NCBI GenBank assembly: GCA_041663005.1
Contig: JBAZRK010000001.1
Coordinates: 222,734-286,733 of the forward strand
DNA length: 64,000 nt
From: Minisyncoccota bacterium
GTDB taxonomy: Bacteria; Patescibacteriota; Minisyncoccia; Phycocordibacterales; UBA9973
Direction: 5' to 3'
Shown here piece after piece: positions 17,026 to 60,973 of the stretch (positions are counted from its first letter, which is position 1; each line of letters starts with the position of its first letter). The translations under genes were made by a program, and so were the position numbers. The notes under the pieces are model-generated. The model searched no databases. It saw only the letters and a program-made list of their open reading frames with translations, and was not told where the DNA came from.

Positions 17026-18081
17026 TTATCGGCTGACCACTGCTAAAATTATTCCAATAATTGCAAAAATTACCGAAAGAACCCAGAACCGCATAGTGAC
17101 TTTATGCGCGGACCACCCAATGGCTTCGAAGTGGTGATGAATAGGGGCGAGTTTAAAAACTCTCTTCCCTCCCCTCCATTTTTTAGAAAATAATTGCACT
17201 ATAACCGAACCTGAAGTTATAACTAAAGGCAGAGCGACAATAGGAAGAATTAAAACTGTATCCGTGAGGAAGGCCAGTGTCGCCAGGGTGAGCGTCAGCC
17301 CCATTATTCCCGTCTCCCCCATATAAAAACGTGCTGGCGGAATATTGAACCAAAGAAAAGCTAAAATCACTCCTGTTAAAACCCCGGAGAATGCCGCTAA
17401 ATCTATCTGGTTATTAGTAAAGGCGATGATTGAATAAGCTCCGAAAATAGAAGCAAAAACTCCTCCGGACAAGCCGTCGATACCGTCTATGACTCCACCG
17501 GAAAATGTCGCCAACGCCACAATAATAAAAAATGGAATTATCAATACTCCTAAAAATATTTCTCCACCGAAAGGCATATGAATTGAAGTCAGTCCAAGTT
17601 TATAGAAAAACCATAGTCCTATGAGCACTGACCCCGCCGTTACCATTAGCACCTTCCACATTCGCCAGGATTTATCATCGCGGGCAAATTTTCCGTTGCC
17701 ATATATTTGAATTAAGTCGTCCCACAATCCTATAATCGACCCCAGCAACAAAGTAAAGAACGGGATCAGAGTTTGGTTACGACTTAGGAAATTCATCTTC
17801 GCACTTTCATCAGAAGGGAAAATTATCGAAATCAAAAAGAAAATCAGTGTGGTTAATAGCGCCGAAACCCAAATTATCAACCCTCCCACCCTAGGCGTCT
17901 TGAGCTCCTCGGCCTCGTTGTGAATAGTATGGAATTCGAGAGCGTGAGCATCCAAATTTCGGGAATATTTTTTCCACATTTTGTATTTAAAGAAAAAATG
18001 CGTTGCAATCGGAGTCAAAAAAAGCGCTAAGAAAAACGCCAGCGCTGTGGGAATGGATATTTTAATCAAGTTCAAAAGCAT
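17026..18081 (-). CDS. mraY: Phospho-N-acetylmuramoyl-pentapeptide transferase
   Basis: Conserved DD..D and GLDGL-type motifs (DGIDGLSGG). Confidence 0.9.
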   Translation of the reverse strand: MLLNLIKISIPTALAFFLALFLTPIATHFFFKYKMWKKYSRNLDAHALEFHTIHNEAEELKTPRVGGLIIWVSALLTTLIFFLISIIFPSDESAKMNFLSRNQTLIPFFTLLLGSIIGLWDDLIQIYGNGKFARDDKSWRMWKVLMVTAGSVLIGLWFFYKLGLTSIHMPFGGEIFLGVLIIPFFIIVALATFSGGVIDGIDGLSGGVFASIFGAYSIIAFTNNQIDLAAFSGVLTGVILAFLWFNIPPARFYMGETGIMGLTLTLATLAFLTDTVLILPIVALPLVITSGSVIVQLFSKKWRGGKRVFKLAPIHHHFEAIGWSAHKVTMRFWVLSVIFAIIGIILAVVSR

Positions 18082-24697: not shown

Positions 24698-25100
24698 AAA
24701 TTTGATTGTCTAGAAATGCTTTGATGCGGCGCTTGTGAGAATCGAAAATGTTGTCCGGTAGTTTATCTAAATCTAACCACTCCCAGCCATAACATTTATC
24801 CGGCTCCATTAAGCTCGGCTCCCCTTCTATGTTTTGAGCTAAAAAGCTGACATGAACATAGTGTTTATCACCACTAGAATCGTGCCCCATATTTAAGAAT
24901 GTAAAAGAGTCGCAGGTTAATCCAGTTTCTTCGAGAAGCTCCCTTGCGACGGCTTGTATCATTCCTTCATTGTGCTCCAGATGTCCACCCGGAAGTCCCC
25001 ATTCGCCCTCCCCTGCGCTGTTTTTCCTTTTCCCTAGAAGTATTTTATTATCCTTTATAACGAACGCGTTAACCCCCACGAGGAAGGAATCTCTGTTCAT
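24672..25100 (-). CDS. Nudix hydrolase
   Basis: Nudix box GGHLEHNEGMIQAVARELLEETG. Confidence 0.8.
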   Translation of the reverse strand: MNRDSFLVGVNAFVIKDNKILLGKRKNSAGEGEWGLPGGHLEHNEGMIQAVARELLEETGLTCDSFTFLNMGHDSSGDKHYVHVSFLAQNIEGEPSLMEPDKCYGWEWLDLDKLPDNIFDSHKRRIKAFLDNQIFIDSKTPQ

Positions 25101-25622: not shown

Positions 25623-25691
25623 ACTTAAATTATATCATATCGAGCCCGGGGTAATGAGTTATCCACAGCCGAGCTTGGTACTTTACTTGAC

Positions 25692-25705
25692 TAAAGTACT
25701 TTAGT
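25692..25705. promoter_or_regulatory. Perfect 14-bp palindrome CTAAAGTACTTTAG with flanking half-site repeats. Candidate operator of the adjacent TrpR-like gene.
   Basis: Read directly. Lies about 17 nt upstream of the start codon. Flanked by tactttacttgac and tttgctaaagtgg partial copies. Confidence 0.4.
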
Positions 25706-25721
25706 TTGCTAAAGTGGAGAT

Positions 25722-26138
25722 ATGAGTAAAGGTGTGAATAAAAATGCAGAGGTTAAGACAGTTAGAATGGTGACCGAAATTGGCACAGATACTGACTGGA
25801 ATACAAAAACCGGCAAACAGCTCGTGGAGGCACTTTTAGCGCTTGAGACTCCCGACGAAGCCAAGCGTTTTCTTCGTGACCTTCTAACTCCCGCGGAAAT
25901 AAAAGAATTCGCTAGTCGTCTTGAAGCCGCTCGTTTGCTCTCTCGCGATGTGCAGTACAATGCCATAAGTGAATCTACGGGTCTCTCTTCTGCTACCATC
26001 GCCCGCATTGCCAAGTGGCTCAATGGCTCTCTCGGCGGCTATCGCTTAGTAATTTCACGCCTTCCTTCGACATCGCTCAGGACAAGTCACCACAACAACT
26101 CTTCCCCACAACGGAAAGGGTTGCGTTTGAGCTCGTAA
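25722..26138 (+). CDS. TrpR-like YerC/YecD-family DNA-binding protein. The C-terminal ~35 aa may be read-through tail.
   Basis: LLTPAEIKEFASRLEAARLL...YNAISESTGLSSATIARI matches the YerC/YecD TrpR-related pattern. Confidence 0.6.
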   Translation: MSKGVNKNAEVKTVRMVTEIGTDTDWNTKTGKQLVEALLALETPDEAKRFLRDLLTPAEIKEFASRLEAARLLSRDVQYNAISESTGLSSATIARIAKWLNGSLGGYRLVISRLPSTSLRTSHHNNSSPQRKGLRLSS

Positions 26139-38701: not shown

Positions 38702-40111
38702 GTGACTCAAAACACCCCCAATCGTAATACTCGAAAAACAAATGTCCGCATCCCACCCCAGAGCATACCCTCAGAACAAGCGGTACTAGGTTCGCTTATG
38801 CTCCGCAAGGACGCCGTACACGAAGTCGAGGATATGATAACTCCCGATTCTTTCTATGTAGACAAGCATAAAATGATTTTCCGGGCGATGCTTGATCTTG
38901 CGGCGAAAAATGAGCCAATAGATATGCTTTCTCTTTCAACTAAACTTAGTGAACAAAAGCTTCTGAACGCTGTCGGCGGCAACAAATACCTCGCCGAAAT
39001 TGTAAACATCGTTCCTTCTTCACACAACGTCAAGCACTATGCAGACATTGTCCAAAAGAAATATGTGCTAAGAAGTTTGATTGAAGCTGCCGACTATGTT
39101 TCTGAGCTAGCGTTCGAAGAAGGCGACGATAAAATGGACGATATCCTAGACGCCGCAGAGAAAAGAATTTTCAGTGTTGTTTCATCTCCGAAAAACCAGA
39201 AATTCGTCAACTTGAAAGACGCTCTCCCTGAAGCTTACGAGCGCCTCGAAAAACTTCACGAGAACCGCGGAATGCTTCGAGGGCTTCCAACTGGATTTAA
39301 AGATTTGGATAATATGCTCTCCGGACTTCAAAATTCCGATTTGATTATTCTTGCCGCTCGTCCTTCCATGGGTAAGACTACGCTCGCCCTCGATATGGCA
39401 CGTATGTCCGGCGTACTTCATGGTAAATCCGTTTTAATTTTCTCACTCGAAATGTCCTCACAGCAACTAGTAGACCGTATGCTCTCCGCAGAATCCCGCG
39501 TGAATGCCTGGAATCTCCGTACTGGCAGACTTTCGTCGGACCGAGAATTCTCACAACTCCGCGACTCGCTCGACAAGCTCGCCAAGGCGCAAATTTTCAT
39601 AGATGACCAGCCGGGTAATTCTATCGTCAGAATGAAAGCGCTGGCTCGCCGCCTCAAAGCTGAAAAAGGTCTAGATTTAATTGTCGTCGACTACTTGCAA
39701 CTTATGACCACTTCTAAAAATTACGACTCAATGGTGAACCAGGTGACGGAAATTTCTCGTTCGCTCAAAAGCCTCGCCAAGGAACTCGACGTGCCGGTTT
39801 TGGCGCTCTCCCAGCTCTCACGTGCCGTAGAATCCCGTGGCGGTAAGCCTCGCCTCTCAGACTTGCGCGACTCCGGCTCTATCGAACAGGACGCCGATGT
39901 CGTTATGTTTATCCACCGAGAAGATAAGGGTAAGGACGAATCTGAGAAAACAAACATAGCGGAAATTCTAATTGAAAAACATCGAAATGGCCCTACTGGC
40001 AAAGTCGACCTTTACTTCGACGAGAAGACCACCACTTTCCTCAACTTGGAAAAGAGCAGCCTCTCGGACTTCGCCCCTTCGAAAATTGGCGGTGAACTGG
40101 ACGAGTTTTAA
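38702..40111 (+). CDS. dnaB: Replicative DNA helicase
   Basis: DnaB N-terminal domain plus RecA-like Walker A GKTTLAL. Confidence 0.9.
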   Translation: MTQNTPNRNTRKTNVRIPPQSIPSEQAVLGSLMLRKDAVHEVEDMITPDSFYVDKHKMIFRAMLDLAAKNEPIDMLSLSTKLSEQKLLNAVGGNKYLAEIVNIVPSSHNVKHYADIVQKKYVLRSLIEAADYVSELAFEEGDDKMDDILDAAEKRIFSVVSSPKNQKFVNLKDALPEAYERLEKLHENRGMLRGLPTGFKDLDNMLSGLQNSDLIILAARPSMGKTTLALDMARMSGVLHGKSVLIFSLEMSSQQLVDRMLSAESRVNAWNLRTGRLSSDREFSQLRDSLDKLAKAQIFIDDQPGNSIVRMKALARRLKAEKGLDLIVVDYLQLMTTSKNYDSMVNQVTEISRSLKSLAKELDVPVLALSQLSRAVESRGGKPRLSDLRDSGSIEQDADVVMFIHREDKGKDESEKTNIAEILIEKHRNGPTGKVDLYFDEKTTTFLNLEKSSLSDFAPSKIGGELDEF

Positions 40112-40129: not shown

Positions 40130-40750
40130 ATGGATGTCATAGACAAGCTGGCTGAAGTCTTCAAAGAGTTCCCGGGCATTGGCGAGCGCCAAGCTCGTAG
40201 GTTCGTGTATTTTCTAATGTCTAGGAACGGGACCTACGCGGACAATTTATCGAAGCTTATTTTAGAAGTTAAAAAAGAAGTGGCTCAGTGCCGGGAGTGT
40301 TTCCGTTTTTTTATTAAAATAGAGCACAACTCTTCTTCTGTCTGCGACATCTGCGCAAGTTCACAAACCGACTCCTCTACCTTACTTGTTGTCGAAAAAG
40401 ATTCAGACCTCGAAAGCGTGAAAAAGAGCCGAACATACCAAGGAAAATATTTCATCCTAGGCGGACTCGTCCCCATTGTCGAGAAAACAACCAAGAGTCG
40501 GATTCGCATAGAGGAACTCAAGAAAAAAATCGAGAAAGAAAACAAGAACGGACTCAAGGAAGTCATCCTCGCTTTCTCTGTGAGCCCTCAAGGCGACCAC
40601 ACGGATACTTACGTACGCGAGGAACTAGAATCACTAGTGAAACCGCTCGCGATTAAAATTTCTTCCCTAGGCAAAGGCCTGTCCACCGGCACCGAGCTCG
40701 AATACTCCGACAACGACACACTACGTAACGCCCTGCGAAACAGACAATAA
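40130..40750 (+). CDS. recR: Recombination protein RecR
   Basis: HhH region, C4 zinc finger CRECF...CDIC, Toprim region. Confidence 0.9.
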   Translation: MDVIDKLAEVFKEFPGIGERQARRFVYFLMSRNGTYADNLSKLILEVKKEVAQCRECFRFFIKIEHNSSSVCDICASSQTDSSTLLVVEKDSDLESVKKSRTYQGKYFILGGLVPIVEKTTKSRIRIEELKKKIEKENKNGLKEVILAFSVSPQGDHTDTYVREELESLVKPLAIKISSLGKGLSTGTELEYSDNDTLRNALRNRQ

Positions 40751-48653: not shown

Positions 48654-50378
48654 TTAGTAAACCTCTTGTTGGTAACAACGTTCACAATACACAATTTCCG
48701 GCCGCTCAGGCGCATAAGAAGTCTCAAATTCGACTTCACACTTCCCTTCGTGGTTAGGATGTTTTTTATCGCACATACATTCTCTGCGCCAAAGTCGGGG
48801 CGGATTGACCAACTTAAATCTCTCCTGGTGCCTGCATTCGAAACAGCTTCGGGGTACAGGTAAATTAAATTTTTTCAGGAATAAAAATTCGTTCTGGATA
48901 ATTTTATAGGGCCTTTTGCAAGTTTCACACTCAATGACATAATTGACTATATCATCACTTGTGTCGTGTATGTCCGGCGGTAAATCTTTCGTGGTGTGAG
49001 TTATGCGCTGCTCTGGTTGTTCACGTTCAATATAGTTGTACCCATTGCTTAAAATATCCGCTTTGGTCTGCGGAAAATAATCTTGCGCGATGGTCTCATT
49101 GTAGCCAAAAGGAGAAATATCAATAGGAAAATATTCGCCATATTTATAAATTCTTCCTTTTTTGTCTATATAGGGCATATCCTGCATATGCTTTATTATT
49201 TCTTCCCTGAGTTTTTCAAAATCGTCCTTGGAATATTCTTTGTTAAAAATGCAATAATTTTTATTGCGTAATCCGACACAGCCAAAAATATTATTGCACC
49301 CGTGGCAATTCAGGGAGTATTCCGCGTTCAGACATTCCCATATCGTCAATCCGAAAAGTTGCCGTGAGCCGTTTATGCCAGAATCCATTGCCTCGTATAG
49401 TAATTCTGTGCTGACCCCAACTCCATAGCCGTCGTAACTTGTATAAAGCCCGTGGACCGCATTGGTAGTAAATTTGCAGTCCTTTAGGTCTTCTGAGTCG
49501 AAACAATGATAAGAGTTTTTTGAATGAAGAATATTATCTCCTGAAACATTTGAAGAATTAAGAATGTTGGCAAACTTTCTCAAGCTTTTTAATCGGAGAC
49601 TTTCGAATTTTTTCTTGGCTTCTTTGAAACTCTCAAAATTCCCTATATTTAATTCGCTTAATTTTTTGAAATACTCGTCTTTTGTCAACTGCTCATTCCA
49701 CATGCAGTAAGATTTATTCCTGAGGTTGGTACAACCAAAACAATTTATGCAGTTTTTACAATCATATAAAAAGTAAGAACTGGTGCATGCTTCGGCGTTT
49801 TGTGAAAAGAAAGTTTCGTAACATTTCAAACTAGAAACATCTCCATAGGAAAACTGGCAATCTCTAGTAATAAACATGTCCATGGAGTCTTTGCAATTAT
49901 TGCACCGCGAGCCGTAAGTAACATTTTCGCCGTCCCAAGACGCGGAGACTAGATAAGCGTTCCTGAATTCACCTATATAATTACCGTATGAAGTATTGAC
50001 GCATTTCCCGATAAAAAGATTTGGATGCGGTACTTGCTCCATCAGGTCCCGAAATTGACCAAAAAATGGCTTAGAAAAGTCATACTCCCTTCCATATTCC
50101 GTAGGGTCCCACTGATCGCCCCACCAAATATCTCGTTCGTACACAATAAACGGAGAGTCGGCTGAAAAGCAACTTATGAGATTTTTCCCTGTCTTTCCGC
50201 ATTTATTGCGATGTAGCGTTCTTTCATTTCGCCAAGCCATCCTTCTTTGCATTCTACACTCCGGGCAAAATGTCGGCGGTGGGACCTTTATTTTTTCGTA
50301 AAAATTGAAATCCTCCGACTCGATTGTAAATTTACCGTTACAATTCTGACATATTACATTTTGTGATTTATACTCCAT
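48654..50378 (-). CDS. Cysteine-rich two-ribbon protein, subtype A, copy 1 (574 aa)
   Basis: N- and C-terminal CxxC-x~24-CxxCR zf-trcl-like ribbons (EDFNFYEKIKVPPPTFCPEC). Internal YDCKNCINCFGC..LRNKSYC repeats. Confidence 0.8.
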   Translation of the reverse strand: MEYKSQNVICQNCNGKFTIESEDFNFYEKIKVPPPTFCPECRMQRRMAWRNERTLHRNKCGKTGKNLISCFSADSPFIVYERDIWWGDQWDPTEYGREYDFSKPFFGQFRDLMEQVPHPNLFIGKCVNTSYGNYIGEFRNAYLVSASWDGENVTYGSRCNNCKDSMDMFITRDCQFSYGDVSSLKCYETFFSQNAEACTSSYFLYDCKNCINCFGCTNLRNKSYCMWNEQLTKDEYFKKLSELNIGNFESFKEAKKKFESLRLKSLRKFANILNSSNVSGDNILHSKNSYHCFDSEDLKDCKFTTNAVHGLYTSYDGYGVGVSTELLYEAMDSGINGSRQLFGLTIWECLNAEYSLNCHGCNNIFGCVGLRNKNYCIFNKEYSKDDFEKLREEIIKHMQDMPYIDKKGRIYKYGEYFPIDISPFGYNETIAQDYFPQTKADILSNGYNYIEREQPEQRITHTTKDLPPDIHDTSDDIVNYVIECETCKRPYKIIQNEFLFLKKFNLPVPRSCFECRHQERFKLVNPPRLWRRECMCDKKHPNHEGKCEVEFETSYAPERPEIVYCERCYQQEVY

Positions 50379-50385
50379 ATACTTT

Positions 50386-50658
50386 TTATTCTATAATTCT
50401 AACGAATTGTAGAATACTTTTCCCGCGCTTACTAAGCGTGTGCCGTACTATACTCCCTTCACTTCTCTTTTTTACTAGACCAGCGATGTACATTTTGTTT
50501 ATATGCGCAGAAATATTTTTAAAGTCCGAGTTTACGTCACTAGAAATTTCCTGAACTGATAAATTGGGTTTCTTGCCCAGTAGCTCAAGTATTTTCAACC
50601 TGTTGTGGTTCGCCACTCCCTTTAAAATCCTTTCTAGCTCTCGTTTTGACTTTTTCAT
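50386..50658 (-). CDS. ArsR/SmtB-family winged-helix transcriptional regulator
   Basis: VANHNRLKILELL recognition-helix region. 90 aa. Confidence 0.8.
   Translation of the reverse strand: MKKSKRELERILKGVANHNRLKILELLGKKPNLSVQEISSDVNSDFKNISAHINKMYIAGLVKKRSEGSIVRHTLSKRGKSILQFVRIIE
50389..50414. promoter_or_regulatory. Operator-like imperfect inverted repeat TTCTATAATTC-taac-GAATTGTAGAA, immediately upstream of the Cys-rich A1 start
   Basis: Near-duplicate of the arsR promoter palindrome. Overlaps the last codons of arsR. Confidence 0.4.
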
Positions 50659-50667
50659 AATTTATCT

Positions 50668-50693
50668 ATTCTATAATTCTATAGAATTGTAGA
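50668..50693. promoter_or_regulatory. 26-bp near-perfect palindrome TTCTATAATTCTA|TAGAATTGTAGAA in the arsR promoter region (candidate ArsR operator)
   Basis: 12 of 13 arm positions match. Located about 10-35 nt upstream of the arsR start codon. Confidence 0.5.
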
Positions 50694-50704
50694 ATGCTCG
50701 TAAA

Positions 50705-52393
50705 TTAGTACACCTCTGCCTGATAACATTTCTCACAATATACTATCTCCGGACGTTCTGGAGCATAACCAGTTTTAATGGCTTTACTGCATTTAATGCA
50801 AGTACGGTCATACAAAAGCGGCGGGTTACGTAGGCTTAAACGTTCAGCGTGTCTACAGTTGGGACATAGACGAGGAAATGGTAAGCCCATACGTTTCAGA
50901 AAATCAAGCTCTGTTTTGATGGCCCGAAATGCACCAGTGCATTCGTGCTTACATGAATCTTTGTGTTCGCATCCAAAAACTTCATTTAGAATTTCTTGGT
51001 CAATGTCTTTTATGTCATCAGGTAAATCACCCGTTTTTAGGGTGATATCGTATTTCGGTTTCTCTATTCCATAATAAACAAAACCCTGTTTCTCCATCTC
51101 GTCTTTAGATAACGGGAAAAATTCCTGCGCGGCACTCACTTCGTATGGATGGGGCGCCAGGGCACTAGGGAAAAATTCACCGTATTCCCCTGTCATTTTC
51201 ATATGCTCAATTATTTTTGGTACCAAGGCCTCGTATTCTTCTTTGGTGTACTGTTTATTTAAAATACAATATTTTTTACCACGTAGTGAAATGCAACCAA
51301 AAAGGTATGCGGAACTTATACAAAATACGCAATAACTTGATTCTCGGAGCTCGGGGAAACAATGCGTGGAAAACTTTACATTGTATGCCCCAGTACCAAC
51401 AATGAGCGACTCATATATCAGCTCGGCATTGTTCCCAAAGTTGGAGTAGTCGTAACAATCTCTTACGGGACCATTTGTAACATTTTGGACCCACTTAGAA
51501 TCCTCCACCCCAACAACTCTATAGCAATCATGTGTATTTTTAGACTCATAAATATAGTCACCTGAAACATTTACGTTTTGTCGACTATGTATGAATTTTT
51601 GGGGATAGTTAAGCCAGTGTGCATATGCTTCGTGTTTTATTGTTTCAAAATTTTTATAAGAACCTAAATGTAATTCTTTTATTTTCTTTAAATATTCTTC
51701 GCGTTCATAAGGCTGGTTGAAAATATAATAAGATTTATTGCGCAAACCCACAGATCCAAAGCACGAATTGCAACCTACGCAATCTTTACAAAAAGTAAGC
51801 TCCTGAGAGCTTTCGCAGTCTACTGAGAAAAGAGTCTGGTAGCAAGTTATACAATTAACGTTGCCGTAAGAAAGCTCGCAGGAATTGGTCATATGACTTT
51901 CAAGTGACCCGCGAGAGCCGTGGTCCCAAATAAGATATGCGGAATCTTCTGTATTGGTAGCACCGCGCACGTAATAGCAGTTTTTGATATTGGTAGCGTT
52001 TGTGCAATAAGAGCAATGTACAGCTCTCTCCATAGATGTCGAAGGCCAGGGAACTTCATGCAAGAGTTCTTTAAATTGTTCAAAAAACGGGCGAGAGAAA
52101 TCAAACTCTCTACCGTATATCATTGGATCCCAACCATCCGAAAACCAGAAATCTCTATCGTAAATTTTTATTGGCGATTCTTCAGGAAGAAAAGAGAATA
52201 TTTTTTCTCCTGTACGAGCATCAGTCTTTTTAAAAACGTGCCAATCATTTCTCCATGTCATTCTACGTTGAAATCTGCACCGCGGACAAAATGTCGGCGG
52301 CGGAACTTGCATTTTTTCATAAAAATTAAAATCTTCGTTGGTTATTACGAAGTCTTTTTTGCAATTCTGGCAGGTTCTTGTTTCGGCTTTCAT
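50705..52393 (-). CDS. Cysteine-rich two-ribbon protein, subtype B, copy 1 (562 aa)
   Basis: Same architecture as above. N-terminus M.AETRTCQNCKKDF. CKDCVGCNSCFG repeat. Confidence 0.8.
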   Translation of the reverse strand: MKAETRTCQNCKKDFVITNEDFNFYEKMQVPPPTFCPRCRFQRRMTWRNDWHVFKKTDARTGEKIFSFLPEESPIKIYDRDFWFSDGWDPMIYGREFDFSRPFFEQFKELLHEVPWPSTSMERAVHCSYCTNATNIKNCYYVRGATNTEDSAYLIWDHGSRGSLESHMTNSCELSYGNVNCITCYQTLFSVDCESSQELTFCKDCVGCNSCFGSVGLRNKSYYIFNQPYEREEYLKKIKELHLGSYKNFETIKHEAYAHWLNYPQKFIHSRQNVNVSGDYIYESKNTHDCYRVVGVEDSKWVQNVTNGPVRDCYDYSNFGNNAELIYESLIVGTGAYNVKFSTHCFPELRESSYCVFCISSAYLFGCISLRGKKYCILNKQYTKEEYEALVPKIIEHMKMTGEYGEFFPSALAPHPYEVSAAQEFFPLSKDEMEKQGFVYYGIEKPKYDITLKTGDLPDDIKDIDQEILNEVFGCEHKDSCKHECTGAFRAIKTELDFLKRMGLPFPRLCPNCRHAERLSLRNPPLLYDRTCIKCSKAIKTGYAPERPEIVYCEKCYQAEVY

Positions 52394-52420: not shown

Positions 52421-54550
52421 TTATTCTAAGATTTTTCGGAGCACGTCTTCAGGAACTTCGGGCGCAGGCTTCGGCACAGGAGGAACTGGCACCTGGGAGC
52501 TCGCGCTAGGGACAGGAGCTTGCGGAGGCGCCACAGGAGGTGCTGGAGGTTTCGGTGGTGCCGGCGGCGGAACAATAGTTTTCTGAGATATAAGATTTTT
52601 AAGTTTATTCATTTCGTCAGGAGTTGCAGCGCGATCTTTGGAAGACCTCGGGTCCTGATTTACATCTCGCATTTTATTTTTCAAAACATCGAGGGAAATA
52701 GGAGCGGGCGTGGGTTTGGGTGCAGGCTGTGGTGTAGGAGAAACAGGCTTGGCCTGAGAGGCATCTTTGGTCATAACCTTAGAGAGCACGTCTTTGAGCG
52801 CTTGGTTGTCTCCGCTTCGCGGCTGTGGCCTTGGAGCCTGCGGTACATTGTTTCTTTCCTGCTTGATAGGCGGTTTTGGCGTAAAAACTTTCTTGACGTC
52901 ACTGACGACTCCGGGTTTGGCAACTGGGGCGTATGGCTTGTCTACACGTTCGGGGTGCCTGTCGTGAGTTTCTATTTTGCTTTCATCTGGCTTAAACTCT
53001 ATGCCTATGTCCGCCAGAGGTTGGAAAAATTCTGACTCATCGTGAATCGGTTCATCCTTTTGACCTTTCTCCACCTTAACCTCCCCAGACTTAATTTTTG
53101 CGATGCATTCCTTACAGTAAGCAGGGCGGCCAGGTTCTGGTTTAAATGGTACAGTGCGTTCTTGTTTACATAGTGAGCAGATTATTGGGAATTTTTCTCC
53201 GGTTGGTGACGGAGCGCTGTTTGGGACACTGTCGCCCAAGGACATCCCGCTCCAGTCGTTGATCTCACGCTCCACGATTTCCCTTGAACGACAGTAAAGT
53301 TCCCTAGAGGATTTGATAACTTCCTCTTCAATGTTTTTGTCCCCTCCCTTTACCATTGGCGGTAAGGTTTTCGCGGAAAAAGGTCGTGAGGTTATGCCGT
53401 CTATCATAAGCTTCATATAGACCTTGTAGTTCGGCAGGTTCACAATGTCCTGGGGAGTAAACTCAGGCTCGAATTCTTTTTCCAAAAATTCTGCATCGTC
53501 GGCACCAACCCTGAAAACAATCATAGTCCCTACGTTGCCGAACACCGCATCGCGGACAGCGGTACTCTTGTCGGAGATAAGCTGCGCGGTGTACTGGTGC
53601 GCCACCGTGAGGTTCAATCGGTATTTGCGGGCTTCGGAGAGAATCCCCGCGAAAGCGTCCGTCACGAAGTTTTGAAATTCGTCGACATATAGATAGAAGT
53701 CTCGTCGGCTTTCTTCCGGTATACGCACACGCTCCATCGCCGCAAGCTGAATCTTGGTAATTATCATACCTCCGAGCAGAGCGGAGTTGTCTTCCCCGAT
53801 TCTTCCTTTGGAAACGTTGACGAGGAAAATTTTCCCCTCGTTCATCATATCGAAAATATTTATTGTACTTTTCGATTGCCCCACGACGTTTCGAATTATC
53901 GAAGTTGAGAGAAACTGCCCGACTTTGTTCTGAATTGGGGCAATGGCTTCATTTCTGAATTTGTCTTGCCAAGCTTCGTATTCGTGAACCCAGAAAGCTT
54001 TAATCACCGGGTCTTTCAAATTTGAAATTATTTTCTGTCGATAGTCCTTGTCGACGAGCATTCTTGGAATTCCCAAAAGTGTCGTCCCCGGGGTGTCGAG
54101 CAAGGCGAGAATTGTATTGTTTAAAATGTATTCCATTCGGGCGCTCCAAGCATTGGCCCAAATTTTCGTAAAGATTCCCATAAGCCCGGACGCCACGAGG
54201 TGCTTGTACTGCGGGTCTACTAATTCCAAAACATTGAACCCTATGTGGTAGTCGGCATCAGCCGGATTGAAATAGATTACATCCTTCAAGCGATGGCGCG
54301 GGATAGCTCCGAGCACTGTCTCCACGTTTTCTCCGTGAGGGTCGACAAGGCAGACGCCTTCTCCGTTCTGGATGTTCTGGATAATCATATTGAACAATAG
54401 TACCGATTTACCGGTACCTGACTTCCCGAGAAGGTAAACGTGCTGACGCCTATCTTTGCGCTTAATACCAAAAAGCTGGTTTCTATCTCGGTAAGTGGTT
54501 AGCCCGATGTAGGTAACGTCTTTGTTTATAGGTATTTCCGCAATCTCCAT
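52421..54550 (-). CDS. FtsK/HerA/VirD4-superfamily P-loop ATPase (paralog 2) with a C-terminal zinc ribbon and Pro-rich tail. The start is re-set to the internal Met.
   Basis: Walker A GKSGTGKS, Walker B FYLYVDEFQN. CSLCK...RPAYCKEC ribbon. PAPPKPPAPP low-complexity tail. The track start at 54667 would read through the dnaK terminator. Confidence 0.7.
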   Translation of the reverse strand: MEIAEIPINKDVTYIGLTTYRDRNQLFGIKRKDRRQHVYLLGKSGTGKSVLLFNMIIQNIQNGEGVCLVDPHGENVETVLGAIPRHRLKDVIYFNPADADYHIGFNVLELVDPQYKHLVASGLMGIFTKIWANAWSARMEYILNNTILALLDTPGTTLLGIPRMLVDKDYRQKIISNLKDPVIKAFWVHEYEAWQDKFRNEAIAPIQNKVGQFLSTSIIRNVVGQSKSTINIFDMMNEGKIFLVNVSKGRIGEDNSALLGGMIITKIQLAAMERVRIPEESRRDFYLYVDEFQNFVTDAFAGILSEARKYRLNLTVAHQYTAQLISDKSTAVRDAVFGNVGTMIVFRVGADDAEFLEKEFEPEFTPQDIVNLPNYKVYMKLMIDGITSRPFSAKTLPPMVKGGDKNIEEEVIKSSRELYCRSREIVEREINDWSGMSLGDSVPNSAPSPTGEKFPIICSLCKQERTVPFKPEPGRPAYCKECIAKIKSGEVKVEKGQKDEPIHDESEFFQPLADIGIEFKPDESKIETHDRHPERVDKPYAPVAKPGVVSDVKKVFTPKPPIKQERNNVPQAPRPQPRSGDNQALKDVLSKVMTKDASQAKPVSPTPQPAPKPTPAPISLDVLKNKMRDVNQDPRSSKDRAATPDEMNKLKNLISQKTIVPPPAPPKPPAPPVAPPQAPVPSASSQVPVPPVPKPAPEVPEDVLRKILE

Positions 54551-54581
54551 TCCATTAATAATACCAGAAATACCACAAACT

Positions 54582-54606
54582 AAAAAGCCCCTTGCGGGGC
54601 TTTTTG
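54582..54606 (-). terminator. Intrinsic terminator immediately downstream of dnaK
   Basis: aaaaa gcccc ttgc ggggc ttttt, 3 nt after the dnaK stop codon. Confidence 0.7.
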
Positions 54607-54608
54607 AA

Positions 54609-56522
54609 TTACTTAGCTTCGTTCTGAGGAGGTTCCTCGCCTTCTTTCTTTTCCTTGAATTCCGCATCTTTGACTTCAGCGGGTTGTTCTTCGGGGGCTC
54701 CGGTTGGCGGAGTTTGAGCGCCAGCCTTGTTCATTGCCTCACCGATTTTGGACATTTCGGCAGACAATTCTTCGGTGGCCTTTTTGATAGCTTCGCCGTC
54801 TGTTCCATCTTTTACCCCACGAAGCGCAGTAATTTTCGCCTCCACTTCAGTTTTCAATTCTGCGGAAATTTTGTCTCCGGCGTCTTTCACCGCTTTTTCT
54901 GCTGTATAGATAATCATCTCGGCGGTGTTTTTCACTTCAGCATTTTCTTTCTTTTTCTTGTCTTCCTCGGCGTGCACTTCAGCGTCCGCTTGCATCTTTT
55001 TGATATCTTCTTCTTTGAGCCCGGAGCTTGCTTCAATTTTTATTGATTGAGTTTTACCTGAAGCCTTATCTTTCGCAGTAACATTCAATATTCCGTTGGC
55101 ATCCACATCGAATGACACCTCAATCTGCGGCATACCTCGAGGAGCTGGCGGAACACCGTCCAGGATAAATCGCCCGAGAGATTTGTTATCGCTTGCCATT
55201 GGGCGCTCTCCCTGCACAATGTGAATTTCTACAGAAGTCTGATTGTCGGCAGCTGTAGAGAAGGTCTGGGATTTACTGGACGGGATGGTGGTGTTTCTTT
55301 CCACTAATTTCGTAGCCACGCCTCCGAGAGTCTCAATTCCCAGAGAAAGCGGAATAACGTCGAGGAGGAGAACATCGCGTACATCTCCTTGCAAAACTCC
55401 GGCTTGCACCGCAGCACCAAGAGCGACGACTTCGTCAGGGTTAATGGTTAGGTTAGGAGCTTTGCCAAATACTTTTTTCACTTCTTCTACAATCTTCGGC
55501 ATCCTGGTCTGACCTCCGACCATCACTATTTCATTCATATCTTCCATCTTGAATCCAGAGGCAGCCATAGCTCGCTTGGTAATTTCGATAGAGCGAGTAA
55601 CGTATTCATCTGCTAGGGATTCTAACTGCGCCCGAGTCATCTTGAGCAATAAGTGCTGAGGACCTTCTGCTGTAGAAGTGATAAATGGAATGTTGATTTC
55701 GGATTCTATTGCAGTAGAGAGCTCAATTTTTGCTTTTTCTGCTGCTTCGTCTAAGCGTTGCAATGCGAGCTTGTCTCCGCGCACGTCCACTCCGGAAGTT
55801 TTCTTAAATTCTTCGGCAATCCAGTTAATTATCTTGTGGTCAATATCTCGTCCGCCCATATGGCTGTCTCCGTCTGTAGACTTAACTTCGATGACATCAT
55901 CTCCGATTTCGAGCACAGACACGTCGAATGTTCCGCCTCCGAAGTCGTAGACCACTATTTTCTCATTTTTCTTTTTATTAAATCCGTAAGCGAGGGCCGC
56001 CGCTGTAGGCTCGTTGATAATTCTTTTTACATCGAGTCCGGCAATTGCACCTGCGTCTTTCGTTGCCTTTCTTTGGGCATCGTTAAAGTATGCGGGAACA
56101 GTGATGACAGCTTCAGTAATTTTCTCGCCGAGTTTTGTTTCGACGTCAGTTTTAATTTTAGAAAGAATCATCGCCGACACTTCTTCCGGTCGCATCCACT
56201 TATCACCGATTTTTACTTCCACTCCGCCGTTGGCAGATTTTTGAATTTTGAAAGATGCATTCTTTAAATCTTTCTGCACTTCAGGATCTTCAAAATTGTG
56301 ACCCATAAAGCGCTTGATGCCGTACACTGTATTTTCCGGATTGGTCACCGCCTGCCTTTTCGCAAGTAAGCCTACAAGCCTGTCTCCATTTTTAGCAACG
56401 GCTACTACCGAAGGAGTCGTGCGGTTCCCTTCTACGTTTTCAATAATTTTCGGCACACCGCCCTCTATGACGGCTACCGCAGAATTTGTCGTACCCAAGT
56501 CTATTCCTATGATTTTTGACAT
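54609..56522 (-). CDS. dnaK: Chaperone DnaK (Hsp70)
   Basis: [32 protein letters not shown]. Confidence 0.95.
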
Positions 56523-56580: not shown

Positions 56581-56620
56581 AATTAGCAAGCTCTTCGCGG
56601 TCGCGAAATGGTTGCTAATT
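56581..56620. promoter_or_regulatory. Nested inverted repeat AATTAGCAA-gctc-TTCGCG-gt-CGCGAA-atgg-TTGCTAATT. The arms supply the -35 TTGCTA of both divergent promoters (dnaK and the PaaX-like gene).
   Basis: Read directly. 17-nt spacers lead to TATACT (dnaK side, minus strand) and TATAAT (plus side). The outer arms resemble CIRCE half-sites (TTAGCA/TGCTAA) but the spacing is non-canonical. Confidence 0.5.
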
Positions 56621-56646: not shown

Positions 56647-57168
56647 ATGTCAAGGAAAAAGGACTACTCGGGCAAAATAATCAAAATTTTAGGCAAAAAA
56701 CCGGCTACTTCTGTCGAAGAAATTTGGACTGGTTTCCCTGACCAGAATCGATATTCTGTAACTAGATCATTAAAGGGCCTTCGTGAGGCAGGTCTCATTG
56801 AGGCTCTTTCCTCCGCTCATTGTGAATATGCACGCCTCACAAAAGAAGGAAAAAAGAAAATGCATAGTCTAATTCTCGAGAGTAATACTGGCCTGGTGAA
56901 CACTTCCTGGGACGGATTTTGGAGGATAATTTTGCTCGACCTTCCAGAAGAAAGAAAAAGCGAGCGCGAAAGTCTGCGCTACCTACTAAAAAAAGCTGGC
57001 TTCGTCTGCCTAAAGAATTCTGCCTGGATCTCCCCTTTCCCATACGAGCATCTCTTCACAAATATTAAAAAAGATTTAGGCCTGACGACAGAAATGATGA
57101 TTATGGTCACCGACAAAATCGACGAAGAATCTAAAAAGGTTTTATTTCAAACCTTCGGGCAAAGTTAA
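56647..57168 (+). CDS. PaaX-like transcriptional regulator (wHTH plus PaaX_C-like domain)
   Basis: C-terminal WDGFW...LPEER...LRYLL.KAGF..L.NSAWISPFP matches the PaaX C-domain pattern (recalled from memory). Confidence 0.55.
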   Translation: MSRKKDYSGKIIKILGKKPATSVEEIWTGFPDQNRYSVTRSLKGLREAGLIEALSSAHCEYARLTKEGKKKMHSLILESNTGLVNTSWDGFWRIILLDLPEERKSERESLRYLLKKAGFVCLKNSAWISPFPYEHLFTNIKKDLGLTTEMMIMVTDKIDEESKKVLFQTFGQS

Positions 57169-57206
57169 TCTCCTTACATATGTAAGGATAGGTGTAAGGA
57201 GATTAA
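57166..57206. terminator. Convergent-gene hairpin: perfect 14-bp inverted repeat TTAATCTCCTTACA ... TGTAAGGAGATTAA, with an inner CCTTACAtaTGTAAGG palindrome
   Basis: Lies between the PaaX-like stop and the Cys-rich A2 stop. Confidence 0.45.
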
Positions 57207-58888
57207 TACACCTCTTTGTTGTAGCAACTTTCGCAATAAACTTTCTCCGGTCGCTCTGGAGAGTAGGGTGTTTCAAATTCATTCTGGCAACCTGAATTCA
57301 TACATTGTCTGTGCCAAAGCTTAAGTGGGTTCTTTTTACGTACACGTTCGCCGTGACGACAAAATGGACATAATGTGGGTAGTGGTAAATTAAATTTTTT
57401 ATAGAAGTTGTATTCAAATAGTGTAATCTTAAACGCCCTCGGGCAGTTGTCATCACACTTACCTCCATGTCCACACTCTATTACCTGTTCGAGGATTCCT
57501 AGGTCTGGTAAAATGTCGGGAATTGCAGAATTTTTTAATGTAATATCGTAATTTTTCTCCTCCAAAACTGCCCAATTGAAACCTTCTGCTCCAGCCCTTT
57601 CGGAATCAAGCGGAAAGTAGTCTTGGGCTTGAGTCTCGTTATATCCAAAAGGAGAATATTTCGCGGGGAAAAATTCTCCGTATTCTCCCAATTTCAGCAT
57701 CTGGTCGACTATCTCTTTTCGTAGTTTTAAGTAGTCTTCTTTCGAATATTGCTTATTGAAAATGCAGTAAGACTTATTGCGGAGACCTATGCACCCAAAA
57801 ATATTGTTACAGTCAAAACAATTATACGAATATTCAATATCGAAACCTCCCCATATGAGCGAAGAGAAATTTACTCGCTGGGCCTCAACACTGTGGGTGT
57901 CATAACAAAGCTCTGCGCCATCCCAAGCAATGGTCCCATCATAAATATCCTTACAGTTGCCCCACACCCTAAAGGAGTAGCGCACATTTTCTGAATCTCT
58001 CACATAAAAACCCTGATTTACAAAGCGTGCGTTCAGCACATCATCCCCTATCGCTTTTTCAGCCTTAGTAATCACCGCGTATTTCCTGGGAACTTTTAAC
58101 TTTAACTCTTCGAATTTTTCCTGGGTATTACTTAGTCCTGCGCGAGAATTCAATTTGAGTTCTTCTAATTTTTTAAAATATTCTTCCTTGGAGTATTGTT
58201 CGTTAAAAATACAGTAAGACTGACTGCGCAAACCTACACACCCAATACAATTGTTGCAATTACGACAGTCATATAAGTAATAAGAATCGACACACCCTTC
58301 GCAGTTCTGACTAAAAAATAAATTGTAGGATTTAACGCAATCAATTAGTTCGTAACAATACTCGGCAAAATTAGAACCATATAAATCAACAGAAAACTTG
58401 GTGTCCGTAACCGCACCAAACACATAAGACGAGTCCTCCACGCGCACAAAGCCCGCCGACCAATAAACATTCTTGGCATCGGTGCAATAGTTGGTATATT
58501 CACTATTTACGCCATTACGAGTTACGACATTCGGATGCGGTACCGCTTTTAAAAGTTCGTCGAATTGCTCGAAGAATGGACGTGTAAAATCATATTCACG
58601 ACCGAAAGACATAGGGTCCCACGCATCACTACGGAAATAGGCCTGTTCATAAACTTTATACGGAGCATCAGGTCGAAAAATAGAGAGCATTGGCTTGCCC
58701 GTGGCATCACACACCCGCCTGTGCCAGCTGCGCTCATTGCGCCAAGCCATACGTCTCTTCATCCTGCATTCAAAACAAAACGTCGGCGGTGGAACTTTTA
58801 TTTTTTCATAGAAACTAAAATCTTCACTTTCTATGGTGAAATCTTTTTTACAGTTTTGGCAGATTTTGTTTTCGTTTTTATATTCCAT
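57203..58888 (-). CDS. Cysteine-rich two-ribbon protein, subtype A, copy 2 (561 aa)
   Basis: N-terminus MEYKNENKICQNCKKDFTIESEDFSFYEKIKVPPPTFC, near-identical to copy A1. YDCRNCNNCIGC repeat. Confidence 0.8.
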   Translation of the reverse strand: MEYKNENKICQNCKKDFTIESEDFSFYEKIKVPPPTFCFECRMKRRMAWRNERSWHRRVCDATGKPMLSIFRPDAPYKVYEQAYFRSDAWDPMSFGREYDFTRPFFEQFDELLKAVPHPNVVTRNGVNSEYTNYCTDAKNVYWSAGFVRVEDSSYVFGAVTDTKFSVDLYGSNFAEYCYELIDCVKSYNLFFSQNCEGCVDSYYLYDCRNCNNCIGCVGLRSQSYCIFNEQYSKEEYFKKLEELKLNSRAGLSNTQEKFEELKLKVPRKYAVITKAEKAIGDDVLNARFVNQGFYVRDSENVRYSFRVWGNCKDIYDGTIAWDGAELCYDTHSVEAQRVNFSSLIWGGFDIEYSYNCFDCNNIFGCIGLRNKSYCIFNKQYSKEDYLKLRKEIVDQMLKLGEYGEFFPAKYSPFGYNETQAQDYFPLDSERAGAEGFNWAVLEEKNYDITLKNSAIPDILPDLGILEQVIECGHGGKCDDNCPRAFKITLFEYNFYKKFNLPLPTLCPFCRHGERVRKKNPLKLWHRQCMNSGCQNEFETPYSPERPEKVYCESCYNKEVY

Positions 58889-58894
58889 ATTTTA

Positions 58895-58916
58895 GATCTA
58901 CGCTATAGCGTAGATC
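58895..58916. promoter_or_regulatory. Perfect 22-bp palindrome GATCTACGCTATAGCGTAGATC, ending 6 nt upstream of the A2 start codon
   Basis: Read directly and verified to be its own reverse complement. Confidence 0.45.
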
Positions 58917-58921
58917 GATTT

Positions 58922-60619
58922 TTAATACACTTCTTTGTTGTAGCAACTTTCGCAATAAACTTTCTCCGGCCGCTCTGGAGAATATGGAGTTTCAAATTCG
59001 TTAGGGCATTTTGCGGCATGGCCGTGAGCTTCGACTGCACATTTGCAATTACTATGCCAAAGACGGCGCGGCGGACGCAAACCAAATCTCCTTCTGTATC
59101 TGCAGTTCGGGCACTTTCGCGGTATTGGAATTTTCTCTTTTTGATAAAACAAAAACTCGTTTCGGGTAATATTGTAATTTTTTGAACATTCTACGCAAGC
59201 TAAAATTTCGTTCAGAATGGTTTCCGGCACATCTTCTATTTTATCAGGAATTTTTTCGCTCGTGATAGTTTCCTTGCCCAAAGTACCGCCCAAGTTTTCT
59301 TCCCAATGCCAACCTTTGGCTAAAACTTCGTTTTTTGTCATTGGCTCATACATATTGCCCTGCGTTTCGTTGTAGTAAATAGGCGCAATTTGAGGTGGAA
59401 AAAATTCGCCATATTCCCCTGTTCTCTTCATATGCTCAATGATTTTTTCTTTTAGCGCCAGATAGTCTGCTTTAGAATATTTTTTATTAAAAATCATGTA
59501 TTCGCCCTTTTTCACACTCACGCAACCAAAAAGATTCTGGCTATTTTGGCAAGTGTCGGAATAATCAATATTCATGTTGTCGTAAGATAAATGGCAAAAA
59601 TGGCAATTGGAAATACGAGCACTCCCCTGACACTCGTAGCTCAATTCAACATGGTCGCCCACGTGATATAAATCCATAGAATCCTTTACCCCATCCGGAC
59701 TGCAGATAAGAAATTTAGAATTCTCCCCCATTAGTGTCTCAAATGATAATGCCACGTTCCTGCAGTCAAAAATCATGCTACCTATAGAGTTAATATTTCT
59801 TTCACTTACAGTGTAACGGTGTACGGCCTCTTCCCGCATAATCTTTTCAAATTCTTTCTCTAGGCCTTGGCGTACCGTAAACGAAGAGAGATCGTATTCT
59901 TTTATCTTTTTTAAATATTCTTCCCGAGTATACTGTTTATTGCGGAATACATAACTTTTGCCCCGGAGGTTTGTAGACATAAAGCAATTATTACATCCGC
60001 GACAATCGAAACAGTAAAAACAAGAAGAGCAATCTTTTATGAATTTCCCATACTGACATTCATAAGAAATACGAGAGTCCGTAACTTCGTACAATCTTTC
60101 TCCTTTCTCGTAAATGTAGCTGCAATCTATTAAATCTCGCGAGTTCCAAATTAATGTGCTGTATAACGCATTCTCGTTGTAGAAGGCAGAAAAGGTGAGG
60201 TAAACATTTTTATTATCACTCGAATGATTGGTATATTCAGAATTTTCACTATTTTTATTTAGGAGTGCCATGCGGGGTACGTCATGCTGGAGTTCGGCAA
60301 ACTGTTCAAAAAATGGGCGAGAAAAATCAAAATCGCGGCCGTAAGAAGTCGCATCCCAGCCATCGCCCCACCAGCACGAATTGCAATACACTTTATAGGG
60401 CTTATTTTGGGAATAAATCGTCACCGTACTCTTGCCGCACAAGTCGCACGACCTACGGTATAAATTGCGTTCGTTCCTCCACGCATAACGCCGCAACTGC
60501 CGACAGCCTGGACACCAAGTCGGCGGTGGGACTTTAATCTTCTCATAAAAATTAAAGTCTTCACTATCAATCGTGAAATCTTGTTTACAGTTTTGACAAT
60601 TTCTGGTTTCTGGTCTCAT
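58922..60619 (-). CDS. Cysteine-rich two-ribbon protein, subtype B, copy 2 (565 aa)
   Basis: N-terminus MRPETRNCQNCKQDF. CFYCFDCRGCNNC repeat. The C-terminal 28 aa are identical to copy A2. Confidence 0.8.
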   Translation of the reverse strand: MRPETRNCQNCKQDFTIDSEDFNFYEKIKVPPPTWCPGCRQLRRYAWRNERNLYRRSCDLCGKSTVTIYSQNKPYKVYCNSCWWGDGWDATSYGRDFDFSRPFFEQFAELQHDVPRMALLNKNSENSEYTNHSSDNKNVYLTFSAFYNENALYSTLIWNSRDLIDCSYIYEKGERLYEVTDSRISYECQYGKFIKDCSSCFYCFDCRGCNNCFMSTNLRGKSYVFRNKQYTREEYLKKIKEYDLSSFTVRQGLEKEFEKIMREEAVHRYTVSERNINSIGSMIFDCRNVALSFETLMGENSKFLICSPDGVKDSMDLYHVGDHVELSYECQGSARISNCHFCHLSYDNMNIDYSDTCQNSQNLFGCVSVKKGEYMIFNKKYSKADYLALKEKIIEHMKRTGEYGEFFPPQIAPIYYNETQGNMYEPMTKNEVLAKGWHWEENLGGTLGKETITSEKIPDKIEDVPETILNEILACVECSKNYNITRNEFLFYQKEKIPIPRKCPNCRYRRRFGLRPPRRLWHSNCKCAVEAHGHAAKCPNEFETPYSPERPEKVYCESCYNKEVY

Positions 60620-60688
60620 ATCATCATACTAGTACGCTAGTGTCTGTTCTAGGCGATATTTTGTTTATAACACTCAAAAAGATGTCGA

Positions 60689-60973
60689 TTATAAAGAGTT
60701 ATCCACATCGCTGTTTTTATTGTGAAAAAACCGGAATGGCATATTATCCACCAGAATGGGGTTATCAGAAAATAGCCTGCGAAGAGCTGAAACTCCTTTT
60801 CTAAATTTACCAAATACGGAAAAAGCAAAATGCTGCTTAACGCGACATCCAAAGCATTGCTCCGGGATTTTCAATCCTACTTTTTCATACAAAAGTAAAT
60901 CGCCAGAATCTATTATAAATTCTTCTTTACAATCAGCGCAAATTTTACTCTCCGTTTTTGAATTCATAGACAT
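60689..60973 (-). CDS. Stand-alone single zf-trcl-like zinc-ribbon protein (~90 aa). A miniature relative of the Cys-rich family.
   Basis: CADCKEEFIIDSGDLLLYEKVGLKIPEQCFGCR. Its start region overlaps the grpE 3' end. Confidence 0.5.
   Translation of the reverse strand: MSMNSKTESKICADCKEEFIIDSGDLLLYEKVGLKIPEQCFGCRVKQHFAFSVFGKFRKGVSALRRLFSDNPILVDNMPFRFFHNKNSDVDNSL

Follow-up and report, generated by a model that had tools for sequence, protein, structure and literature searches.

A palindrome between tandem genes for Cys-rich paralogs in a Paceibacterota genome: one copy of a conserved family and a putative site for a dimeric regulator

Introduction

As kinds of genetic element, the palindromic operator and the hairpin are ordinary and well known. 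Intercistronic hairpins that set operon expression include the REP sequence of malE-malF and the replicase operator of MS2, and recombination sites that flank gene modules include the attC sites of integrons and the pdif/Xer sites of plasmids. The site of the E. coli regulator PaaX contains TGATTC. To our knowledge, gene regulation in the Patescibacteria (CPR) has scarcely been studied, because these bacteria are uncultured and possess few recognisable regulators.

Here we describe a palindrome from a metagenome-assembled genome of Candidatus Paceibacterota, situated between two tandem genes for Cys-rich paralogs, B2 and A2, in a stretch of 64,000 nucleotides (the whole of the DNA that was analysed, hereafter the window). 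The palindrome is real, conserved and testable, and, judged from the sequences compared, it is one copy of a conserved family, here termed type-1, that is found 5' of the A-type subfamily of these paralogs in Paceibacteria. We infer an action on DNA, the binding of a dimeric repressor and an independent regulation of A2: with a probability of about 0.5, the palindrome is a site on double-stranded DNA through which a dimeric regulator would give A2 separate control, and an action through RNA is the less probable mechanism. The type-1 motif family, its link to A-type genes and its modular distribution seem to be undescribed so far; a literature search on the paralog family, its palindromes and leaderless translation in Patescibacteria found nothing relevant.

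Results

The Cys-rich paralogs and their array

A2 (57203-58888, minus strand; ATG at 58888-58886) encodes a Cys-rich protein of 561 aa with the N-terminus MEYKNENK, and B2 (58922-60619, minus strand), immediately 5' of the palindrome, encodes a paralog of 565 aa. Together with the pair B1 (50705-52393) and A1 (48654-50378) they make up the four paralogs of the window, with pairwise identities of 37-45%. They are members of an uncharacterised and very large protein family (upwards of 6600 proteins in the database at E <= 1e-20), for which there is no Pfam or NCBIfam family, zinc-finger matches (treble-clef, LIM) being sub-threshold only; the AlphaFold model of A2 (pLDDT 86.5) has no significant neighbour in the PDB and at most a weak beta-solenoid likeness. 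In syntenic relatives (including L002, L164 and L170) arrays of the paralogs lie between grpE and dnaK, with a convergent gene for a PaaX_M-domain protein at the end of the array.

Several other features of the array were observed. The last 87 nt of A2 and B2 (57203-57289 and 58922-59008) have 91% DNA identity and the last 26 residues are identical, against 40% identity for the proteins overall, which indicates recent gene conversion between the tandem paralogs. A 94-aa open reading frame (60689-60973, minus strand) that overlaps the end of grpE matches the N-terminal treble-clef part of the paralogs alone and is probably the remnant of another paralog copy. The gap between the convergent stop codons of A2 and the PaaX-like gene is filled by an inverted repeat with 14-bp arms (57165-57206) that contains an 18-mer palindrome (57171-57188) and has no clear T-run after it; palindromes occupy equivalent positions in L119, L164 and L130. 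In the protein of 748 aa encoded beside dnaK (52421-54667, minus strand), the Pfam hits precomputed for the identical locus L170 indicate ATPase domains of TraG/TrwB-type coupling proteins; a treble-clef zinc finger lies at its C-terminus, and its tail is long and rich in proline.

The palindrome in the B2-A2 spacer

The palindrome, GATCTACGCTATAGCGTAGATC (58895-58916, assigned to neither strand), has the core TACGCTATAGCGTA and outer arms GATC. An earlier note on this DNA had described it as exactly self-complementary and as lying between the B2 stop and the A2 start, 6 nt 5' of the A2 ATG; the sequence confirms the self-complementarity over all 22 bases, and the coordinates agree with the position. 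Read along the coding strand, the junction consists of GTG TAT TAA (the stop of B2, 58924-58922), the 5 nt AAATC (stop and AAATC together spanning 58917-58924, minus strand), the palindrome, the 6-nt A-rich leader TAAAAT (58889-58894, minus strand) and ATG GAA TAT. B2 and A2 are both on the minus strand, the palindrome fills the 33-nt gap between the stop of the one and the start of the other, and its centre is 17 nt 5' of the A2 ATG.

No perfect palindrome in the window is longer; the runners-up are one of 18 bp (57171-57188) and three of 16 bp, and a half-length of at least 11 was reached in 7 of 300 windows simulated with a first-order Markov model. Within the 64 kb there is neither a second copy with up to three mismatches (100 shuffles gave none either) nor an 11-nt half-site elsewhere, and in the window, where it occurs once, the element does not have the many copies of a REP/MITE or CRISPR repeat. 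The palindrome is also present in another public assembly record of this organism (L170), which matches the window over 7686 bp with 100% identity, and an assembly artefact is therefore unlikely.

A family of palindromes upstream of A-type genes

Beyond the nearest relatives, 163 further loci with members of the paralog family were compared. Type-1 sites were defined by the core GCYATRGC between CA/AC and GT/TG, followed by symmetric A/T-rich arms; the window palindrome has this core, as TAC-GCTATAGC-GTA, in a 12-site alignment and matches the nhmmer profile. Eleven further sequenced sites, with 10 distinct sequences among them, have this core immediately 5' of an A-type paralog. That the element recurs before this one subfamily in about a dozen further genomes makes a regulator binding site, rather than a chance hairpin, the most likely explanation.

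The placement of the core is far from uniform: of the 64 occurrences of GCYATRGC in 1.25 Mb of related loci, 7 lie within 45 nt upstream of paralog starts, where 0.77 are expected, and all 7 have extended symmetric arms. Once the start-codon requirement is relaxed, further copies appear in L044, L011, L013, L137 and L161/L082. The copy in L044 contains TCTACGCTATAGCGTA, equal to the window sequence over 16 nt, and that in L046 (GCTATAGCGTA) is followed by TAAAAT-ATG-GAA-TAT-AAA-AAC-GAA-AA, as in the window. Every gene downstream of a type-1 site is A-type, and in most copies the centre lies 10-25 nt before the ATG, as it does at A2. The arms vary between genomes yet remain symmetric, and complementarity reaches 38 bp in L044. 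A search of 1.28 Mb of loci with the type-1 profile returned the known copies only, none of them at unrelated genes, and the core has no match in viral contigs. In two places the start codon itself is part of the element: an A-type paralog begins with the ATG at the exact centre of a type-1 palindrome (GCCATGGC) in L161 (5746-5767) and in L082 (2407-2428). In L013, L137 and L018 the central ATG opens a two-codon mini-ORF (ATG GCG TAA).

Palindromes of other kinds also accumulate before these genes. Perfect inverted repeats of at least 7 nt are present in 46 of 201 windows upstream of paralogs, compared with 23 of 201 upstream of other genes and 7.5 after shuffling, and zero-gap palindromes number 12 where about 1 is expected. 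Directly before the B2 ATG lies a type-3 element, ACTAGCGTACTAGTATGATGAT (60620-60641, minus strand), which is conserved in the same orientation in L025 and L033 and in the opposite one in L108 and L168. The partial half-site TACGCTAG that had been reported upstream of B2 was found at 60633-60640 (plus strand), 14-21 nt before the B2 ATG, and turns out to be part of this conserved element. Common to the type-3 element and the palindrome is TAGCGTA, which occurs upstream of family genes 8 times against 0.36 expected (6 against about 0.35 in a smaller locus set) and in the intergenic DNA of the window before A2 and B2 only.

At least four palindrome types thus precede paralogs, namely type-1 (GCYATRGC), ArsR-type (TTCTATAGAA), type-3 (ACTAGTAT) and ACTTTAG, and there are further GGTTAAC and TGACGGCCGTCA types. 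An ArsR-family gene is present in eight loci (the window and seven others), each time preceded by a zero-gap palindrome of 22-40 bp that varies in sequence from one genome to another; a second copy of it stands before the next gene in the window and in L009, and the TTCTATAGAA-type sites on both sides of the ArsR-like gene match the protein encoded there. The copies in the window are two 28-bp near-palindromes, ATTCTACAATTC(TA/GT)TAGAATTATAGAAT, on the minus strand, on either side of the ArsR-family gene (50386-50658): the one at 50668-50695 precedes that gene, and the one at 50388-50415 precedes A1 and overlaps the last codons of the ArsR-like gene. The comparison supports the view, put forward in the earlier note, of the B2-A2 palindrome as operator-like and distinct from the ArsR-type site, and the palindrome is non-random. 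Elsewhere in the window a Trp-repressor-family gene (25722-26138, plus strand; PF01371, 4e-18) has tandem ACTTTAG/CTAAAGT palindromes upstream (25680-25715), among them a perfect 16-mer (25690-25705), and palindromes of the ACTTTAG type also stand before Cys-rich paralogs in L147, L154, L076 and L167.

A lineage-specific insertion

The A2-ortholog junctions of the closest relatives (L001, 80% protein identity; L164, 66%; L002/L003, 65%; L004, 65%; the P0006 contig, 62%) lack the palindrome and have spacers of 2-4 nt, that of the P0006 contig (2 nt) being judged from gene coordinates only. In several of them AGGAGG is found within the last codons of the upstream gene. Alignment of the window with L001 shows a clean extra segment of 31 nt, with the near-direct repeats TAAAAAT and TAAAAT on either side, and the first codons differ (MEYKNENK against MNSETK). 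With gaps of 2-4 nt and no palindrome in the nearest relatives, the copy in the window sits in a lineage-specific insertion or replacement of 31 nt. Conservation in orthologous intergenic regions, on which the earlier note had staked the palindrome's significance, thus holds in one part and fails in the other: the closest junctions (62-80% identity) are without the palindrome, but the core is kept 5' of A-type paralogs in more distant genomes.

The N-terminus MEYKNENK of A2 agrees with L046, L086 and L013 and not with the closest relative, which suggests the exchange of a 5' module. The association between this N-terminus and the type-1 site is not invariable: in L167, where site type and N-terminal type are shuffled, MEYKNE goes with an ACTTTAG-type palindrome, in L169 with a degenerate type-1 site only, and in L168 the upstream DNA is too short to tell.

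These observations bear on a selfish or neutral origin, in which the palindrome would be a palindromic insertion, a recombination site or the scar of an exchange of paralog 5' ends, with no regulatory role. Its absence from the four closest relatives with readable junction DNA (and the 2-nt spacing of the fifth), the repeats that flank the inserted segment, the N-terminus that A2 has in common with L046, L086 and L013, the conversion tract at the 3' ends of A2 and B2 (87 nt at 91%) and the shuffling in L167 all fit such an origin. We nevertheless consider it unlikely, as the element occurs once in 64 kb and, across 1.28 Mb, only at paralog genes, it is accompanied by no gene for a recombinase or transposase, the paralog protein resembles beta-solenoids only, and weakly, and the viral contigs hold no match to the core. 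Moreover, the core has been kept between genomes whose proteins share only 45-57% identity, and this conservation speaks for selection and against the neutral reading.

A more speculative idea, which we also regard as improbable, is that the palindromes are interchangeable "address labels" that are swapped together with the first codons by recombination, rewiring which small regulator controls which paralog, the copy in the window being the product of a recent swap. If true, address-label swapping would amount to a cassette-like system of regulatory shuffling in ultra-small genomes.

Start sites of the genome and the case for an RNA hairpin

Shine-Dalgarno sequences are nearly absent across the genes of the window. 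Where the spacer is 15 nt or longer, 23 of 34 genes have instead a TAnnnT box, often with a TGn extension, that ends 4-10 nt (mode 6) before the start codon, compared with 12.5% of random positions; examples precede the genes at 17026-18081 (minus), 24672-25100 (minus), 38702-40111 (plus), 40130-40750 (plus) and 56647-57168 (plus). Boxes so near to start codons imply leaderless or near-leaderless mRNAs, which look like the rule in this genome. Operon-internal genes begin fewer than 15 nt after the stop of the gene before them. B2 belongs to the TAnnnT class (its -10-like TAGTAT lies 6 nt before the ATG, TAGTAT-N6-ATG), but A2 fits neither class, having a 33-nt gap with TAGATC at the modal -10 position. 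No match to a sigma-70-like promoter was found on the minus strand of the A2 spacer, and without a canonical -10 a promoter for the site to control is not evident.

This arrangement raises the possibility of an RNA element, in which B2 and A2 would be co-transcribed and the hairpin, 6 nt before the AUG, would block re-initiation or scanning by ribosomes that end at the B2 stop, bind a translational repressor, or act in stability or processing, so that A2 is lowered or gated separately. The 9-bp RNA hairpin that had been foreseen for the palindrome does fold, as a 9-bp stem with a UAUA loop at about -14 kcal/mol (z = -3.35), and the folding predicts that it will form in any read-through RNA from B2. 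As Shine-Dalgarno sequences are hardly used and operon-internal genes lie less than 15 nt from a stop, a structured gap of 33 nt should break the coupling of termination and re-initiation; the same-strand spacer without a canonical -10, and the closest relatives with their gaps of 2-4 nt and their AGGAGG embedded in the last codons of the upstream gene, are in keeping with this. So are several features of the family: the arms of type-1 elements co-vary, most members adjoin an upstream stop codon and fill same-strand spacers, and in some copies complementarity extends to 38 nt.

Against an RNA element, hairpin stability is not conserved. Predicted values over the 12 sites run from -2.9 to -25.9 kcal/mol, with z > -2.5 in 5 of 12 and several sites, in which a 2x2 mismatch is conserved, at -3 to -7 kcal/mol, and the core sequence is conserved nonetheless. 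G.T mismatches number 4 against 8 for A.C, so that there is no G.U bias and no signature of an RNA strand; neither conserved stability nor G.U-tolerant co-variation, as expected of a structured RNA, was found across the 12 sites. The centre remains self-complementary though a loop need not, the element is flipped in L121 and lies in a divergent promoter region in L044, and there is no Rfam match near it. The earlier note's more specific proposal, a hairpin that occludes the translation start, fares poorly: neither the AUG nor a Shine-Dalgarno sequence (a signal that this genome hardly uses) lies within the hairpin, which stops 6 nt short of the AUG, and the AUG and the 6 preceding nucleotides are unpaired in both the MFE and the centroid structure. 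An RNA element is the main alternative, though a less probable one than a DNA site.

Transcription termination was also considered. A Rho-independent terminator on the coding strand was rejected, since the minus strand continues with UAAAAUAUGG, which has no U-tract, and the T-run is on the plus strand only. As for an intrinsic terminator on the plus strand that would stop antisense transcription, a consensus scan did return a terminator-like stem followed by GATTTTTAAT, with a promoter-like TTGGCA-17-TATATT just upstream on the same strand. It is nonetheless very improbable, because no plus-strand gene ends at the palindrome, the promoter-like hexamers coincide with codons of A2 that are conserved (TGC CAA) and such matches are not enriched over shuffles, and the flanking A/T run is missing in other type-1 members.

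Evidence bearing on a proposed site on duplex DNA

Across the 12 aligned sites, mirror positions are complementary in 72.7% of cases; shuffling lowers this to 58%, with 0 of 500 shuffles as high, and sliding the partner gives 29-45%. Of 18 mirror pairs, 13 have changes on both sides. By itself, this maintenance of symmetry fits either a hairpin or a duplex bound by a dimer. What leans towards duplex DNA is the centre, where the pair two positions from the middle changes symmetrically (TA in six sites, CG in five of the 12-site alignment); that pair is unable to form in a hairpin because a loop of 2 nt would remain, although the symmetric change may be a single evolutionary event. Orientation leans the same way: the asymmetric CA...GT step common to eight sites is flipped in L121, and the type-3 element exists in both orientations. 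The L044 element, moreover, is found between divergent genes, beside TATAAT boxes and at a distance of 125 nt from the ATG that it precedes, which places it in a promoter region and not in an intercistronic spacer.

The two-fold symmetry of type-1 sites thus runs through the centre and is conserved across genomes, as it would be in an operator, and the ArsR-like genes of the same arrays, with palindromes of the same design, provide a local precedent for that reading. Several points stand against a DNA site: no promoter is evident in the A2 spacer, no type-1 site was found upstream of a transcription-factor gene, covarying outer arms are also expected of a hairpin under structural selection, most copies are in same-strand spacers and hence would be transcribed, and the nearest relatives manage without the element.

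The PaaX-like gene and other candidate regulators

A candidate binder close at hand is the PaaX-like protein encoded convergently with A2 (56647-57168, plus strand; PaaX_M domain), whose operator the palindrome had been proposed to be. The protein matches PF20803 at 1e-19, but it scores 30.9 bits against a cut-off of 264.55 for the PaaX equivalog and has 173 aa against a model of 279 positions. Its gene adjoins A2 and is syntenic with paralog arrays in nine loci, a degenerate type-1 site occurs in the PaaX-like locus L169, and TTCGC-GGTC-GCGAA and TACGC-TATA-GCGTA have the spacing CGC-N4-GCG in common, a weak resemblance. The PaaX-like gene has, however, a conserved palindrome of its own: TTCGCGGTCGCGAA (56594-56607, assigned to neither strand), in the divergent region between dnaK and the PaaX-like gene, is conserved upstream of PaaX-like genes in nine loci, and in the form TTTCGYGGTCRCGAAA it stands beside the gene's own -35/-10 in 9 of 9 loci that have the gene. 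This suggests local regulation by the PaaX-like protein, of its own gene and/or of dnaK, and makes the palindrome at 56594-56607 a likelier PaaX-like operator than type-1. In the window a CIRCE-like repeat, TTAGCA...TGCTAA (56583-56618), encloses TTCGCGGTCGCGAA between dnaK (54609-56522, minus strand) and the PaaX-like gene.

Other comparisons also speak against the PaaX-like protein as binder. Its palindrome TTTCGYGGTCRCGAAA differs from type-1, and it is TTTCGYGGTCRCGAAA that lies upstream of a paralog in L132; the syntenic PaaX-like loci L002, L164, L076, L119, L130 and L160 have other palindromes or none before their paralogs; and the gene, which adjoins a type-1 site only here and, in degenerate form, in L169, is present within the flanks covered at 0 of 11 other type-1 sites. 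Neither the same motif nor the co-occurrence that a PaaX regulon would call for was found, and the TGATTC of the E. coli site is absent here. The palindrome is accordingly a doubtful candidate indeed for the operator of this regulator. In the loci compared, type-1 sites have no convincing co-occurrence with either PaaX-like or ArsR-like genes, no type-1 site lies upstream of a transcription-factor gene in the window or the other loci, and neither type-1 nor type-3 sites lie upstream of window genes other than A2 and B2.

Discussion

A DNA site for a dimeric regulator would operate at this locus as follows. The palindrome would have been inserted between B2 and A2, or imported with a swapped 5' module. 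A dimeric, sequence-specific regulator, probably encoded outside the window, would bind the duplex and occupy -28 to -7, counted from the A2 start; the bound protein would either repress a weak promoter near the start or obstruct RNA polymerase arriving from the B2 promoter. The outcome would be control of A2 separate from that of B2, whereas the nearest relatives keep a tightly coupled pair with a gap of 2-4 nt.

The pair B2-A2 would in that case exemplify how a coupled pair is split into separately controllable genes by an insertion of 31 nt. Type-1 sites also offer a concrete cis-element with which to seek a regulator among the few small DNA-binding proteins of these genomes, and a means of defining co-regulated genes across metagenome-assembled genomes.

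The type-1 palindrome resembles several known systems in part. Like a Rho-independent terminator, it has a G+C-containing stem and a short loop. With attC and pdif/Xer sites the type-1 elements have in common imperfect palindromes with a conserved core and variable arms, a location at the borders of tandem paralog "cassettes" in the same orientation, and signs that 5' modules are exchanged; unlike those sites, they are accompanied by no integrase or Xer gene in the loci, are found solely 5' of one gene subfamily, and bear no direct sign of recombination at the site. The likeness to the E. coli PaaX operator is the adjacent regulator gene with a PaaX_M domain. Intercistronic hairpins of the REP and MS2 type are similar in being stable stem-loops between co-oriented cistrons, a few nucleotides before the downstream AUG, but the palindrome is not a multi-copy repeat in the window and does not sequester the AUG or a Shine-Dalgarno sequence, and its family conserves sequence rather than stability.

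The remaining comparison is with operators of the ArsR/SmtB type, represented in the window by the sites at 50668-50695 and 50388-50415. Type-1 is unrelated to these in sequence save for the CTATAG centre, it has no adjacent regulator gene bearing the same site, and it lacks the -10-like box that the ArsR-type site possesses (TAGAAT, 9 nt before the ATG). The two have in common a long zero-gap palindrome within about 25 nt of the start codon, in a tiny same-strand spacer, and a symmetry that is retained while the sequence diverges between genomes.
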